From the sequence record LR745707: a stretch of DNA of 40,532 bases; one strand, 5' to 3'. Numbering within the stretch: position 1 is the stretch's first letter; each line of letters opens with the position of its first letter. The notes beneath the pieces are model-generated. The model was not told the DNA's origin, made no database searches, and saw nothing but the letters and a program-made list of their open reading frames with translations. Made by a program: the position numbers and the translations under genes. This DNA comes from Escherichia phage T7. Below are positions 9,856 to 37,577 of the stretch, piece after piece.

Positions 9856-10275
9856 GTGGAACTGCGGGAGAAAATCCTTGAGCGAATCAAGGTGACTTCC
9901 TCTGGGTGTTGGGAGTGGCAGGGCGCTACGAACAATAAAGGGTACGGGCAGGTGTGGTGCAGCAATACCGGAAAGGTTGTCTACTGTCATCGCGTAATGT
10001 CTAATGCTCCGAAAGGTTCTACCGTCCTGCACTCCTGTGATAATCCATTATGTTGTAACCCTGAACACCTATCCATAGGAACTCCAAAAGAGAACTCCAC
10101 TGACATGGTAAATAAGGGTCGCTCACACAAGGGGTATAAACTTTCAGACGAAGACGTAATGGCAATCATGGAGTCCAGCGAGTCCAATGTATCCTTAGCT
10201 CGCACCTATGGTGTCTCCCAACAGACTATTTGTGATATACGCAAAGGGAGGCGACATGGCAGGTTACGGCGCTAA
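9856..10275 (+). CDS. 2.8: gp2.8, HNH homing-endonuclease-like protein (GTG start)
   Basis: 139-aa ORF with CWEWQG..NKGYG..HSCDNPLCCNPEHL..GTPKENSTDMVNKGR motif, paralogous to gp7.7. Confidence 0.85.
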   Translation: MELREKILERIKVTSSGCWEWQGATNNKGYGQVWCSNTGKVVYCHRVMSNAPKGSTVLHSCDNPLCCNPEHLSIGTPKENSTDMVNKGRSHKGYKLSDEDVMAIMESSESNVSLARTYGVSQQTICDIRKGRRHGRLRR

Positions 10276-10705
10276 AGGAATCCGAAAGGTTGGAGCGTTT
10301 CGCTCTGGCCTAGAGGACAAGGTTTCAAAGCAGTTGGAATCAAAAGGTATTAAATTCGAGTATGAAGAGTGGAAAGTGCCTTATGTAATTCCGGCGAGCA
10401 ATCACACTTACACTCCAGACTTCTTACTTCCAAACGGTATATTCGTTGAGACAAAGGGTCTGTGGGAAAGCGATGATAGAAAGAAGCACTTATTAATTAG
10501 GGAGCAGCACCCCGAGCTAGACATCCGTATTGTCTTCTCAAGCTCACGTACTAAGTTATACAAAGGTTCTCCAACGTCTTATGGAGAGTTCTGCGAAAAG
10601 CATGGTATTAAGTTCGCTGATAAACTGATACCTGCTGAGTGGATAAAGGAACCCAAGAAGGAGGTCCCCTTTGATAGATTAAAAAGGAAAGGAGGAAAGA
10701 AATAA
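10256..10705 (+). CDS. 3: gp3 endonuclease I (Holliday junction resolvase)
   Basis: ATG at 10256 in frame with track ORF ending 10705; 149 aa. Confidence 0.9.
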   Translation: MAGYGAKGIRKVGAFRSGLEDKVSKQLESKGIKFEYEEWKVPYVIPASNHTYTPDFLLPNGIFVETKGLWESDDRKKHLLIREQHPELDIRIVFSSSRTKLYKGSPTSYGEFCEKHGIKFADKLIPAEWIKEPKKEVPFDRLKRKGGKK

Positions 10706-19533: not shown

Positions 19534-19833
19534 ATGGGTAAGAAAGTTAAGAAGGCCGGGAAGAAAGTCACCAAGTCCGTTAAGAAAGTCGTTAAGGAAG
19601 GGGCTCGTCCGGTTAAACAGGTTGCTGGCGGTCTAGCTGGTCTGGCTGGTGGTACTGGTGAAGCACAGATGGTGGAAGTACCACAAGCTGCCGCACAGAT
19701 TGTTGACGTACCTGAGAAAGAGGTTTCCACTGAGGACGAAGCACAGACAGAAAGCGGACGCAAGAAAGCTCGTGCTGGCGGTAAGAAATCCTTGAGTGTA
19801 GCCCGTAGCTCCGGTGGCGGTATCAACATTTAA
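19534..19833 (+). CDS. 7.3: gp7.3 (tail-associated protein)
   Basis: 99-aa track ORF, lysine-rich. Confidence 0.9.
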   Translation: MGKKVKKAGKKVTKSVKKVVKEGARPVKQVAGGLAGLAGGTGEAQMVEVPQAAAQIVDVPEKEVSTEDEAQTESGRKKARAGGKKSLSVARSSGGGINI

Positions 19834-33500: not shown

Positions 33501-34550
33501 GGGACCTTGAAGTATTCAACACAGGAACTGGCTGCTCGCTCTCCGTGGACTAAGCTACTGAACGGAACCACTAACTACCTTCTGGATGCTGCGCGTCAAG
33601 GTATGCTTGGGGATGTTATTAGTGCCACCCTAACAGGTAAGACTACCCGCTGGGAGAAAGAAGGCTTCCTTCGTGGTGCCTCCGTAACTCCTGAGCAGAT
33701 GGCTGGCATCAAGTCTCTCATCAAGGAACATATGGTACGCGGTGAGGACGGGAAGTTTACCGTTAAGGACAAGCAAGCGTTCTCTATGGACCCACGGGCT
33801 ATGGACTTATGGAGACTGGCTGACAAGGTAGCTGATGAGGCAATGCTGCGTCCACATAAGGTGTCCTTACAGGATTCCCATGCGTTCGGAGCACTAGGTA
33901 AGATGGTTATGCAGTTTAAGTCTTTCACTATCAAGTCCCTTAACTCTAAGTTCCTGCGAACCTTCTATGATGGATACAAGAACAACCGAGCGATTGACGC
34001 TGCGCTGAGCATCATCACCTCTATGGGTCTCGCTGGTGGTTTCTATGCTATGGCTGCACACGTCAAAGCATACGCTCTGCCTAAGGAGAAACGTAAGGAG
34101 TACTTGGAGCGTGCACTGGACCCAACCATGATTGCCCACGCTGCGTTATCTCGTAGTTCTCAATTGGGTGCTCCTTTGGCTATGGTTGACCTAGTTGGTG
34201 GTGTTTTAGGGTTCGAGTCCTCCAAGATGGCTCGCTCTACGATTCTACCTAAGGACACCGTGAAGGAACGTGACCCAAACAAACCGTACACCTCTAGAGA
34301 GGTAATGGGCGCTATGGGTTCAAACCTTCTGGAACAGATGCCTTCGGCTGGCTTTGTGGCTAACGTAGGGGCTACCTTAATGAATGCTGCTGGCGTGGTC
34401 AACTCACCTAATAAAGCAACCGAGCAGGACTTCATGACTGGTCTTATGAACTCCACAAAAGAGTTAGTACCGAACGACCCATTGACTCAACAGCTTGTGT
34501 TGAAGATTTATGAGGCGAACGGTGTTAACTTGAGGGAGCGTAGGAAATAA
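30594..34550 (+). CDS. 16: gp16 internal virion protein D (ejectosome; N-terminal lytic transglycosylase domain)
   Basis: 1318-aa track ORF; transglycosylase-like LLRKVAWTESRF..GPLGMMQF. Confidence 0.95.
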   Translation: MDKYDKNVPSDYDGLFQKAADANGVSYDLLRKVAWTESRFVPTAKSKTGPLGMMQFTKATAKALGLRVTDGPDDDRLNPELAINAAAKQLAGLVGKFDGDELKAALAYNQGEGRLGNPQLEAYSKGDFASISEEGRNYMRNLLDVAKSPMAGQLETFGGITPKGKGIPAEVGLAGIGHKQKVTQELPESTSFDVKGIEQEATAKPFAKDFWETHGETLDEYNSRSTFFGFKNAAEAELSNSVAGMAFRAGRLDNGFDVFKDTITPTRWNSHIWTPEELEKIRTEVKNPAYINVVTGGSPENLDDLIKLANENFENDSRAAEAGLGAKLSAGIIGAGVDPLSYVPMVGVTGKGFKLINKALVVGAESAALNVASEGLRTSVAGGDADYAGAALGGFVFGAGMSAISDAVAAGLKRSKPEAEFDNEFIGPMMRLEARETARNANSADLSRMNTENMKFEGEHNGVPYEDLPTERGAVVLHDGSVLSASNPINPKTLKEFSEVDPEKAARGIKLAGFTEIGLKTLGSDDADIRRVAIDLVRSPTGMQSGASGKFGATASDIHERLHGTDQRTYNDLYKAMSDAMKDPEFSTGGAKMSREETRYTIYRRAALAIERPELQKALTPSERIVMDIIKRHFDTKRELMENPAIFGNTKAVSIFPESRHKGTYVPHVYDRHAKALMIQRYGAEGLQEGIARSWMNSYVSRPEVKARVDEMLKELHGVKEVTPEMVEKYAMDKAYGISHSDQFTNSSIIEENIEGLVGIENNSFLEARNLFDSDLSITMPDGQQFSVNDLRDFDMFRIMPAYDRRVNGDIAIMGSTGKTTKELKDEILALKAKAEGDGKKTGEVHALMDTVKILTGRARRNQDTVWETSLRAINDLGFFAKNAYMGAQNITEIAGMIVTGNVRALGHGIPILRDTLYKSKPVSAKELKELHASLFGKEVDQLIRPKRADIVQRLREATDTGPAVANIVGTLKYSTQELAARSPWTKLLNGTTNYLLDAARQGMLGDVISATLTGKTTRWEKEGFLRGASVTPEQMAGIKSLIKEHMVRGEDGKFTVKDKQAFSMDPRAMDLWRLADKVADEAMLRPHKVSLQDSHAFGALGKMVMQFKSFTIKSLNSKFLRTFYDGYKNNRAIDAALSIITSMGLAGGFYAMAAHVKAYALPKEKRKEYLERALDPTMIAHAALSRSSQLGAPLAMVDLVGGVLGFESSKMARSTILPKDTVKERDPNKPYTSREVMGAMGSNLLEQMPSAGFVANVGATLMNAAGVVNSPNKATEQDFMTGLMNSTKELVPNDPLTQQLVLKIYEANGVNLRERRK

Positions 34551-34570
34551 TACGACTCACTATAGGGAGA
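34548..34570 (+). promoter_or_regulatory. T7 RNAP promoter phi17 (class III)
   Basis: taatacgactcactatagggaga. Confidence 0.9.
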
Positions 34571-34622
34571 GGCGAAATAATCTTCTCCCTGTAGTCTCTT
34601 AGATTTACTTTAAGGAGGTCAA

Positions 34623-36656
34623 ATGGCTAACGTAATTAAAACCGTTTTGACTTACCAGTTAGATGGCTCCAATCGTGATTTTAATATCCCGTTTGAGTAT
34701 CTAGCCCGTAAGTTCGTAGTGGTAACTCTTATTGGTGTAGACCGAAAGGTCCTTACGATTAATACAGACTATCGCTTTGCTACACGTACTACTATCTCTC
34801 TGACAAAGGCTTGGGGTCCAGCCGATGGCTACACGACCATCGAGTTACGTCGAGTAACCTCCACTACCGACCGATTGGTTGACTTTACGGATGGTTCAAT
34901 CCTCCGCGCGTATGACCTTAACGTCGCTCAGATTCAAACGATGCACGTAGCGGAAGAGGCCCGTGACCTCACTGCGGATACTATCGGTGTCAATAACGAT
35001 GGTCACTTGGATGCTCGTGGTCGTCGAATTGTGAACCTAGCGAACGCCGTGGATGACCGCGATGCTGTTCCGTTTGGTCAACTAAAGACCATGAACCAGA
35101 ACTCATGGCAAGCACGTAATGAAGCCTTACAGTTCCGTAATGAGGCTGAGACTTTCAGAAACCAAGCGGAGGGCTTTAAGAACGAGTCCAGTACCAACGC
35201 TACGAACACAAAGCAGTGGCGCGATGAGACCAAGGGTTTCCGAGACGAAGCCAAGCGGTTCAAGAATACGGCTGGTCAATACGCTACATCTGCTGGGAAC
35301 TCTGCTTCCGCTGCGCATCAATCTGAGGTAAACGCTGAGAACTCTGCCACAGCATCCGCTAACTCTGCTCATTTGGCAGAACAGCAAGCAGACCGTGCGG
35401 AACGTGAGGCAGACAAGCTGGAAAATTACAATGGATTGGCTGGTGCAATTGATAAGGTAGATGGAACCAATGTGTACTGGAAAGGAAATATTCACGCTAA
35501 CGGGCGCCTTTACATGACCACAAACGGTTTTGACTGTGGCCAGTATCAACAGTTCTTTGGTGGTGTCACTAATCGTTACTCTGTCATGGAGTGGGGAGAT
35601 GAGAACGGATGGCTGATGTATGTTCAACGTAGAGAGTGGACAACAGCGATAGGCGGTAACATCCAGTTAGTAGTAAACGGACAGATCATCACCCAAGGTG
35701 GAGCCATGACCGGTCAGCTAAAATTGCAGAATGGGCATGTTCTTCAATTAGAGTCCGCATCCGACAAGGCGCACTATATTCTATCTAAAGATGGTAACAG
35801 GAATAACTGGTACATTGGTAGAGGGTCAGATAACAACAATGACTGTACCTTCCACTCCTATGTACATGGTACGACCTTAACACTCAAGCAGGACTATGCA
35901 GTAGTTAACAAACACTTCCACGTAGGTCAGGCCGTTGTGGCCACTGATGGTAATATTCAAGGTACTAAGTGGGGAGGTAAATGGCTGGATGCTTACCTAC
36001 GTGACAGCTTCGTTGCGAAGAAGTTTCGCCCGGCTGCGCTCGACCCGCGCGGCATGACGCTGGTTGCCGGCGCGTTTTGGGCAGACATCTATCTGCTAGG
36101 CGTCAACCACCTGACCGATGGCACCAGCAAATACAACGTGACAATTGCAGATGGTAGTGCATCACCTAAGAAATCTACCAAGTTCGGTGGAGACGGCAGC
36201 GCGGCCTACAGTGACGGAGCTTGGTACAACTTCGCTGAGGTCATGACTCATCACGGTAAGCGCCTGCCTAACTACAACGAATTCCAGGCGCTGGCTTTCG
36301 GCACGACCGAGGCTACGTCCAGCGGCGGCACCGACGTGCCCACCACCGGCGTGAACGGCACGGGCGCAACGAGCGCGTGGAACATCTTCACGTCCAAGTG
36401 GGGCGTTGTGCAGGCGTCCGGTTGCTTGTGGACGTGGGGTAACGAGTTCGGCGGCGTGAATGGCGCATCCGAATACACGGCCAACACTGGCGGCAGAGGA
36501 TCGGTGTACGCCCAGCCCGCTGCTGCGCTATTCGGCGGCGCCTGGAACGGCACGTCGCTCTCGGGTTCTCGCGCTGCGCTCTGGTACAGCGGGCCGTCGT
36601 TCTCGTTCGCGTTCTTCGGGGCGCGCGGCGTCTGTGACCACCTGATTCTTGAGTAG
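34623..36656 (+). CDS. 17: Chimeric tail fibre: T7 gp17 residues 1 to about 466 fused to a foreign GC-rich 211-aa C-terminal domain recognised as the BPP-1 Mtd C-type-lectin receptor-binding domain
   Basis: 677 aa versus 553 aa for native gp17; T7 sequence through ...LRDSFVAK, then KFRPAALDPRGMTLVAGAFWADIYLLGVNHLTDG...FFGARGVCDHLILE; sharp GC rise from 36021. Confidence 0.85.
   Translation: MANVIKTVLTYQLDGSNRDFNIPFEYLARKFVVVTLIGVDRKVLTINTDYRFATRTTISLTKAWGPADGYTTIELRRVTSTTDRLVDFTDGSILRAYDLNVAQIQTMHVAEEARDLTADTIGVNNDGHLDARGRRIVNLANAVDDRDAVPFGQLKTMNQNSWQARNEALQFRNEAETFRNQAEGFKNESSTNATNTKQWRDETKGFRDEAKRFKNTAGQYATSAGNSASAAHQSEVNAENSATASANSAHLAEQQADRAEREADKLENYNGLAGAIDKVDGTNVYWKGNIHANGRLYMTTNGFDCGQYQQFFGGVTNRYSVMEWGDENGWLMYVQRREWTTAIGGNIQLVVNGQIITQGGAMTGQLKLQNGHVLQLESASDKAHYILSKDGNRNNWYIGRGSDNNNDCTFHSYVHGTTLTLKQDYAVVNKHFHVGQAVVATDGNIQGTKWGGKWLDAYLRDSFVAKKFRPAALDPRGMTLVAGAFWADIYLLGVNHLTDGTSKYNVTIADGSASPKKSTKFGGDGSAAYSDGAWYNFAEVMTHHGKRLPNYNEFQALAFGTTEATSSGGTDVPTTGVNGTGATSAWNIFTSKWGVVQASGCLWTWGNEFGGVNGASEYTANTGGRGSVYAQPAAALFGGAWNGTSLSGSRAALWYSGPSFSFAFFGARGVCDHLILE
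36518..36653 (+). other. DGR variable region (VR) at the 3' end of the chimeric fibre gene
   Basis: About 135 bp GC-rich block matching the remembered BPP-1 mtd VR; codons at recalled template AAC positions read GCC, AAC, GGC, CTC, CTC, TAC, AGC, TTC, TTC, TTC. Confidence 0.6.
36617..36653 (+). promoter_or_regulatory. DGR IMH (initiation of mutagenic homing): 14-bp G/C-only block plus adjacent 23 bp
   Basis: cggggcgcgcggcg (36617-36630) followed by tctgtgaccacctgattcttgag. Confidence 0.6.
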
Positions 36657-36675
36657 CGGGGCCGAAAGGCCCCGC
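36656..36675 (+). promoter_or_regulatory. DGR target-recognition hairpin (8-bp GC stem, GAAA loop)
   Basis: GCGGGGCC GAAA GGCCCCGC immediately after the stop codon; no U-run, so not a typical intrinsic terminator. Confidence 0.7.
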
Positions 36676-36686
36676 CAAGGCAACCG

Positions 36687-36710
36687 GATTTACTTTAAGG
36701 AGGTCAAATG
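36687..36710 (+). promoter_or_regulatory. Duplicated gene 17 ribosome-binding site driving trxA
   Basis: gatttactttaaggaggtcaaatg is identical to 34602-34625 upstream of gene 17. Confidence 0.85.
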
Positions 36711-37037
36711 AGCGATAAAATCATTCACCTGACCGATGACTCTTTTGATACCGACGTGCTGAAAGCTGATGGTGCAATTCTGGTTGATTTCTGGGCAGAG
36801 TGGTGCGGCCCTTGCAAAATGATCGCTCCAATCCTGGACGAAATTGCGGACGAATATCAGGGTAAGCTGACTGTGGCCAAACTGAACATTGACCAGAACC
36901 CTGGCACCGCACCGAAATACGGTATCCGTGGCATCCCAACTCTGCTGCTGTTCAAAAACGGTGAAGTGGCAGCAACCAAAGTAGGCGCTCTGTCTAAAGG
37001 CCAACTGAAAGAGTTCCTGGACGCCAACCTGGCTTAA
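36708..37037 (+). CDS. trxA: Thioredoxin 1 (E. coli TrxA protein sequence), inserted and synonymously recoded
   Basis: 109-aa [109 protein letters not shown]; WCGPC active site; not a T7 gene. Confidence 0.95.
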
Positions 37038-37098
37038 TGATTGGTAAATCACAAGGAAAGACGTGTAGTCCACGGATGGACTCTCAAGGAGGTACAAG

Positions 37099-37302
37099 GT
37101 GCTATCATTAGACTTTAACAACGAATTGATTAAGGCTGCTCCAATTGTTGGGACGGGTGTAGCAGATGTTAGTGCTCGACTGTTCTTTGGGTTAAGCCTT
37201 AACGAATGGTTCTACGTTGCTGCTATCGCCTACACAGTGGTTCAGATTGGTGCCAAGGTAGTCGATAAGATGATTGACTGGAAGAAAGCCAATAAGGAGT
37301 GA
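37099..37302 (+). CDS. 17.5: gp17.5 holin (GTG start)
   Basis: 67-aa track ORF with one hydrophobic segment; RBS caaggaggtacaag upstream. Confidence 0.9.
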   Translation: MLSLDFNNELIKAAPIVGTGVADVSARLFFGLSLNEWFYVAAIAYTVVQIGAKVVDKMIDWKKANKE

Positions 37303-37307
37303 TATGT

Positions 37308-37577
37308 ATGGAAAAGGATAAGAGCCTTATTACATTCTTAGAGATGTTGGACACTGCGATGGCTCAGCGTATGCTTGCGGACCTTTCGGACCATGAGCGT
37401 CGCTCTCCGCAACTCTATAATGCTATTAACAAACTGTTAGACCGCCACAAGTTCCAGATTGGTAAGTTGCAGCCGGATGTTCACATCTTAGGTGGCCTTG
37501 CTGGTGCTCTTGAAGAGTACAAAGAGAAAGTCGGTGATAACGGTCTTACGGATGATGATATTTACACATTACAGTGA
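37308..37577 (+). CDS. 18: gp18 terminase small subunit
   Basis: ATG at 37308 (MEKDKSLITFLEML...) within track ORF 37299-37577; 89 aa. Confidence 0.9.
   Translation: MEKDKSLITFLEMLDTAMAQRMLADLSDHERRSPQLYNAINKLLDRHKFQIGKLQPDVHILGGLAGALEEYKEKVGDNGLTDDDIYTLQ

Follow-up and report, generated by a model that had tools for sequence, protein, structure and literature searches.

A chimeric tail-fibre gene joining T7 gp17 to the Mtd-P1 receptor-binding domain of Bordetella phage BPP-1 retains a complete orphan DGR target

Native T7 gp17 (NC_001604; structures 4A0T and 7BOZ) has 553 residues and carries its tip at residues 467–553. The native BPP-1 Mtd/DGR system is represented by NC_005357 and by the structures 1YU0 and 2IOU, and the title of the primary paper on 1YU0 names a C-type-lectin fold. 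For this system, Guo et al. 2011 (PMC3240598) reported that the IMH and a hairpin within +24 nt of the variable repeat (VR) are the required cis elements, and that the IMH and hairpin are sufficient to target a heterologous gene. T7 and BPP-1 fibres were combined by Grigonyte et al. 2020 (PMC7077284; PRJEB35760), who fused gp17 residues 1–466 to various lengths of Mtd, with trxA serving for positive selection on an E. coli delta-trxA host. One record of that study, phPM (LR745709.1, a T7/Yep-phi gp17 hybrid), has the same gp17 1–466 fusion point and the trxA marker as the DNA described here; its tip comes from a related T7-like phage, and it was the sole hybrid reported to be infective (PMC7077284).

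We analysed a DNA stretch of 40,532 nucleotides (LR745707, hereafter the window) and compared it with these systems. The window has gp17 residues 1–466, the promoter phi17 and the genomic position of the gene in common with native T7, whereas the fibre protein has 677 residues and the T7 tip is deleted. Mtd residues 171–381, VR1, the IMH and the downstream hairpin are the same as in native BPP-1; Mtd residues 1–170, the template repeat (TR), avd and brt are lacking, 24 synonymous changes lie upstream of the VR, and the Mtd domain sits on the T7 fibre shaft instead of the BPP-1 tail fibre. The closest phage record is LR745708.1 (phAG_3), in which gene 17 is annotated as 'Chimaeric tail fibre ... 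T7 tail fibre (gp17 amino acids 1-466) and BPP1 tail fibre (Mtd ...)'. It has the same T7 backbone, gp17 1–466 fusion point, recoded mtd fragment, trxA cassette, RBS and collapsed terminal repeat as the window. It differs in several respects: its Mtd part starts at residue 163, with 24 extra nt encoding Mtd 163–170 (NEYSLWDI); a terminator-like hairpin of 48 additional nt precedes trxA; and it has G at 24877, T at 36400 and, in gp17 codon 118, the reference A. The three private changes of the window are absent from it. An exact-sequence search for the 677-residue chimeric protein in public assemblies gave no hit.

The ORF listing of the window contains a single ORF at 34623..36656 (+ strand), the chimeric gene 17, which comprises 677 codons and a TAG stop and was identified from the ORF list, PDB matches and Pfam. 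In phmmer searches of PDB sequences, residues 1–467 of the chimera matched T7 gp17 (7boz, E=0), with identity through K466 except for T118A, and the alignment to 4a0t, also gp17, spanned residues 368–467. Residues 462–677 aligned to Mtd-P1 (1yu0_A, E=8e-139), and residues 467–677 were 100% identical to residues 171–381 of that chain. Every gp17 alignment in this PDB search stopped at residue 467, and the gp17 tip domain (about residues 465–553) is missing. Pfam assigned residues 1–162 to Phage_T7_tail (PF03906, the N-terminal tail-attachment domain; E=4e-74) and residues 371–464 to gp37_trimer (PF20744, the pyramid/trimerisation domain; E=3e-40). No Pfam family was found for residues 467–677 at E≤0.01, so the Mtd part is identified through its identity to PDB and GenBank entries. 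BLAST matched positions 1–36020 and 37040 to the end to T7 (V01146), leaving 1019 nt of foreign DNA between them; T7 DNA 36022–36284 of V01146 is absent from the window. The gene 17 ORF is gp17 1–466 joined in frame to BPP-1 Mtd-P1 171–381 at nucleotides 36020|36021. The initial annotation had read gene 17 as an ORF of 677 instead of 553 residues that follows T7 to about residue 466 and then switches to about residues 171–381 of Mtd. The ORF list, the phmmer match to 7boz, the end of the V01146 match at 36020 and the identity to 1yu0_A all agree with this reading and specify the variant as Mtd-P1; the range proposed for the replacement, 36021–36656, coincides exactly with the Mtd segment plus the stop codon.

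The T7 part of the gene, at 34623..36020 (+), encodes the tail-attachment domain, the shaft and the pyramid domain. The chimeric gene is driven by the T7 late promoter phi17 at 34548..34570 (+), an exact match to the 23-nt consensus at the position corresponding to phi17 in the NC_001604 annotation. The GC content is 0.62–0.68 over 36200–36700, compared with roughly 0.45–0.50 in most of the adjoining T7 sequence. The Mtd segment is also overlapped by a pair of antisense ORFs on the minus strand (36272–36678), 93 and 96 aa in length; they sit in the stretch of 62–68% GC, where long spurious ORFs are expected, and no evidence was found that these minus-strand ORFs are genes.

The Mtd segment proper, at 36021..36653 (+), encodes the C-type-lectin-fold receptor-binding domain of BPP-1 Mtd-P1, and its product is 100% identical to both 1yu0_A and the mtd product of NC_005357. 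Mtd residues 1–170 are missing from the chimera, the BPP-1 match starting at mtd codon 171. In native Mtd, the C-terminal C-type-lectin-fold domain bears the variable residues, and the upper, intertwined portion of the trimer is reportedly built from the N-terminal 170 residues. At the DNA level, window positions 36021–36686 align to NC_005357 from codon 171 up to the nucleotide that precedes the start codon of avd, so that the native BPP-1 mtd–avd intergenic sequence (36657..36686, +) is kept as far as that nucleotide. The DNA identity to BPP-1 is 96.4%, with 24 differences, all between 36026 and 36497. Every one of these replaces G/C by A/T, and all are synonymous because the protein is identical to native Mtd. 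Judged from the sequence, this recoding pattern is that of a synthetic fragment with its GC content lowered, and the sequence of the segment agrees with that of the mtd g-block given in PMC7077284 (Fig. S7).

The intergenic sequence is followed by a synthetic 21-nt linker (36687..36707, +) with the Shine-Dalgarno AAGGAGGT for trxA, which matches neither T7 nor BPP-1 and is identical in LR745708.1. Next comes the E. coli thioredoxin gene trxA (36708..37037, +), the positive-selection marker for a delta-trxA host, identified by protein and DNA matches. Its product aligns over the full length (1–109) to E. coli TrxA among the PDB sequences (6n7w_I, E=5e-71), the matched chains coming from T7 replisome/polymerase structures, and contains the Pfam Thioredoxin domain (PF00085). 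In every one of the 5374 matching E. coli genomes, the best DNA identity to trxA is only 86.1%, which indicates that the gene of the window is recoded too. The cassette is placed between gene 17 and gene 17.5, as in LR745708.1 and LR745709.1. T7 sequence resumes at 37040..37302 (+; V01146 36285 onward, from BLAST and the ORF list), with gene 17.5 (holin) at 37099..37302, and the whole segment 37040–40532 is 100% identical to V01146 36285–39777 by BLAST. The only T7 promoter upstream of trxA is phi17, and a scan of 34400–37400 for sigma-70 promoters and intrinsic terminators gave no excess of sites over shuffled sequence; trxA and gene 17 therefore presumably share a transcript that starts at phi17. 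The 48-nt terminator-like hairpin of LR745708.1, which has a T-run and lies between gene 17 and trxA at 36713–36760, is also part of the published mtd g-block and is not found in the window at 36686|36687. Its lack could affect trxA expression.

We compared the window with LR745710.1, the wild type of the Grigonyte study, and found, apart from the insert, three small changes only: 742 T>C, a 2-nt deletion near 1900, and 19559 T>G (gp7.3 V9G). Table S6 of PMC7077284 lists for the mutant phAG_4 742 T>C, changes at 1897, 1899 and 1900, and 19560 T>G with V->G; the window carries this SNV fingerprint. We are nearly certain that the window is the engineered T7 genome published by Grigonyte et al. 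(2020, Viruses 12:193), namely mutant phAG_4 by its SNV fingerprint, with a fibre reported to be non-functional on E. coli. One entry of the paper differs from this assignment. The Mtd part of the window begins at K171, and Table S4 gives 170–382 for phAG_4 and 171–382 for phAG_1; the phAG_3 entry (163) fits LR745708.1 in 1-based numbering. Either a shift by one in the labels or numbering of the paper, or a sequenced phage of design 1, would account for this.

On this reading, the genome arose by homologous recombination with a plasmid that bore the synthetic mtd fragment and the recoded trxA, and recombinants were selected on E. coli delta-trxA. The recombination exchanged gp17 codons 467–553, the LPS-binding tip domain, for Mtd-P1 171–381 and left the tail-attachment domain, the shaft and the pyramid domain of gp17 in place. 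The DNA polymerase of T7 needs thioredoxin for its processivity, so only recombinants with trxA grow on the delta-trxA host; PMC7077284 bases its selection on this inability of T7 to grow in the absence of thioredoxin.

The small differences were also examined individually. The change 742 T>C, which PMC7077284 labels only 'intergenic', alters the last base of the -10 hexamer (737–742, TACGAT to TACGAC) of the A3 early promoter, which has TTGACA at 714–719, a 17-nt spacer and an annotated start at 750. This change probably weakens one of the three strong early promoters of T7. At about 1897–1900, the loss of AG from an AGAGAG run relative to LR745710.1 frameshifts a small ORF at 1781–1999 (gene 0.6B region), which is truncated after about 45 codons. 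The third change, V9G at 19559, affects gp7.3, a protein that according to the NC_001604 annotation virions need for infectivity and that is apparently also needed to assemble the tail fibres, whereas PMC7077284 places all extra SNPs in non-essential regions. The gp17 substitution T118A (nt 34974) was considered as a private, possibly adaptive mutation and was dropped, because LR745710.1 also has G at this position; V01146 and LR745708.1 have A. Both 34974 G and 24156 T differ from V01146 and are common to the window and LR745710.1, which indicates polymorphisms of the laboratory strain. That LR745708.1 has the reference A in gp17 codon 118 suggests that in that phage the recombination crossover lay upstream of this codon. 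With respect to the genome ends, positions 1–160 of the window correspond to V01146 39778–39937 and the last position (40532) to V01146 39777, so the right-hand 160-bp direct terminal repeat is missing. LR745708.1 and LR745710.1 are shortened at the terminal repeat likewise; the missing repeat is an assembly collapse and no biological difference.

The phenotype of such phages was reported in PMC7077284. The chimeric phages were initially propagated on cells that provided wild-type gp17 from a plasmid. Once this complementation was withdrawn, the T7/Yep-phi hybrid alone infected E. coli, and none of the T7-Mtd fusions was infective on this host. The T7-Mtd mutants replicated when the wild-type fibre was supplied in trans, and they were sequenced to exclude other lethal changes. 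Tests on Bordetella or on cells that express pertactin do not appear in PMC7077284. The suggestion of the initial annotation that receptor specificity is probably redirected finds no counterpart in these results, in which the fusions failed to infect E. coli and depended on wild-type gp17 in trans. That annotation also gave no hint that the construct is synthetic and marker-selected. Three causes of the loss of function are likely. Pertactin, the ligand of Mtd-P1, would be absent from E. coli, and the gp17 tip that recognises LPS has been removed. Furthermore, the Mtd domain has been parted from its own N-terminal 170 residues, which may help form the intertwined trimer, so that correct trimerisation on the gp17 pyramid domain is uncertain. 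A trimeric chimera had been considered structurally plausible; the reported phenotype argues against it. The chimera is already known: it was published as a laboratory construct, and the phenotype reported for it is negative.

The 3' part of the fused gene contains the target elements of the BPP-1 DGR. The variable repeat VR1, 134 bp at 36518..36651 (+), is an exact match to VR1 annotated in NC_005357; the recoding lies upstream of it and leaves it intact. The IMH region at 36617..36651 (+), located by VR/TR comparison and the definition in PMC3240598, consists of (GC)14 at 36617–36630 and the 21-bp element at 36631–36651, which has five mismatches to TR. The BPP-1 hairpin/cruciform follows at 36656..36675 (+), with an 8-bp GC stem and a GAAA loop; its DNA fold gave -13.3 kcal/mol (z = -2.76), and PMC3240598 reports that the hairpin is required for DGR target recognition, with a loop of the type GRNA. 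In that work the cruciform was mapped by T7 endonuclease I cleavage in a supercoiled plasmid, and the hairpin here shares a genome with T7 gene 3 (about 10256–10705 of the window), which encodes T7 endonuclease I. The 23 adenines of TR correspond to 12 variable codons within chimera residues 640–665 (Mtd 344–369), namely Mtd 344, 346, 347, 348, 350, 357, 359, 360, 364, 366, 368 and 369.

In regard to the remaining components of the system, a blastn search of the whole window (word size 7) with the BPP-1 TR matched only the VR, at 83.6%, which indicates that the template repeat is absent; tblastn of Avd and Brt against the window gave a best E of 0.38, and avd and brt are likewise absent. By its sequence, gene 17 of this phage is a complete DGR target and an orphan one, a point that goes beyond PMC7077284. 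Since TR, avd and brt, the trans components, are all lacking, no diversification can occur in the present genome. The initial annotation had also raised the possibility that the specificity was made evolvable; this holds for the cis target elements, all of which are present, and fails for the template repeat, avd and brt.

The data were also considered in light of other origins. Tail-fibre tips are swapped between phages in nature, and the junction falls on a domain boundary, as it might in a T7-like phage that gained a C-type-lectin domain and a host trxA horizontally. The backbone, however, hardly differs from that of laboratory T7, the synonymous changes all go the same way under a protein that is 100% identical to Mtd, trxA is recoded to 86% behind a synthetic RBS, and the SNVs match a published engineered phage. 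Moreover, Mtd-like sequence was found in 12 of 50,697 phage records, which were Bordetella, Synechococcus and Marinomonas phages and engineered T7 only. None is a natural T7-like phage, so no natural T7-like fibre explains the chimera. Backbone, recoding, synthetic RBS and SNVs refute a natural recombinant for practical purposes, and the chance of such an origin is negligible. It is just as hard to believe that T7 reads were joined to BPP-1 reads during assembly. The collapsed 160-bp terminal repeat shows that the assembly is not error-free, yet the junction is in frame with codon resolution, the independent record LR745708.1 has the same architecture with a different junction, and the published design and g-block sequence agree with the window.

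A further question is whether the construct was purposely made DGR-evolvable, with VR, IMH and hairpin kept so that avd-TR-brt supplied in trans would diversify the tip. Such an intention would fit the 100% native VR1 beside recoded upstream codons, the presence of (GC)14, the 21-bp IMH and the hairpin within +24 nt (the requirements in PMC3240598), and the rationale of PMC7077284, which cites Mtd as letting BPP-1 'rapidly evolve'. Against it, PMC7077284 contains neither a TR/brt donor nor a diversification experiment, the window has no TR, avd or brt, and the cis elements either form part of the mtd 3' end or directly adjoin it, which means that any native 3' copy brings them along. We therefore regard a deliberate design for diversification as unlikely. 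The engineered phAG_4 of the Grigonyte study, with its DGR target elements carried along in the fragment, is the reading preferred here.

The chimera keeps the cis elements that Guo et al. 2011 found sufficient, and for this reason diversification in vivo is possible in principle. We consider it very improbable that avd-TR-brt provided in trans in an E. coli host would in fact diversify the 12 tip codons (residues 640–665) in vivo. The use of the chimera with a DGR by supplying avd-TR-brt in trans is not described in PMC7077284, and a literature search for later T7/DGR fibre engineering yielded reviews only.

As a synthetic laboratory phage, this genome is not to be counted as a natural acquisition of a C-type-lectin or DGR-type domain by T7-like phages. 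It documents a negative result, in that a fibre made by setting only the lectin domain of Mtd on the pyramid domain of gp17 did not work on E. coli. The graft brings with it a complete orphan DGR target, which makes a DGR-driven rescue possible in principle. If the 12 codons can be diversified in this way, a dead-end construct would become a self-diversifying T7 receptor-binding library, from which variants binding E. coli surface structures might be selected.
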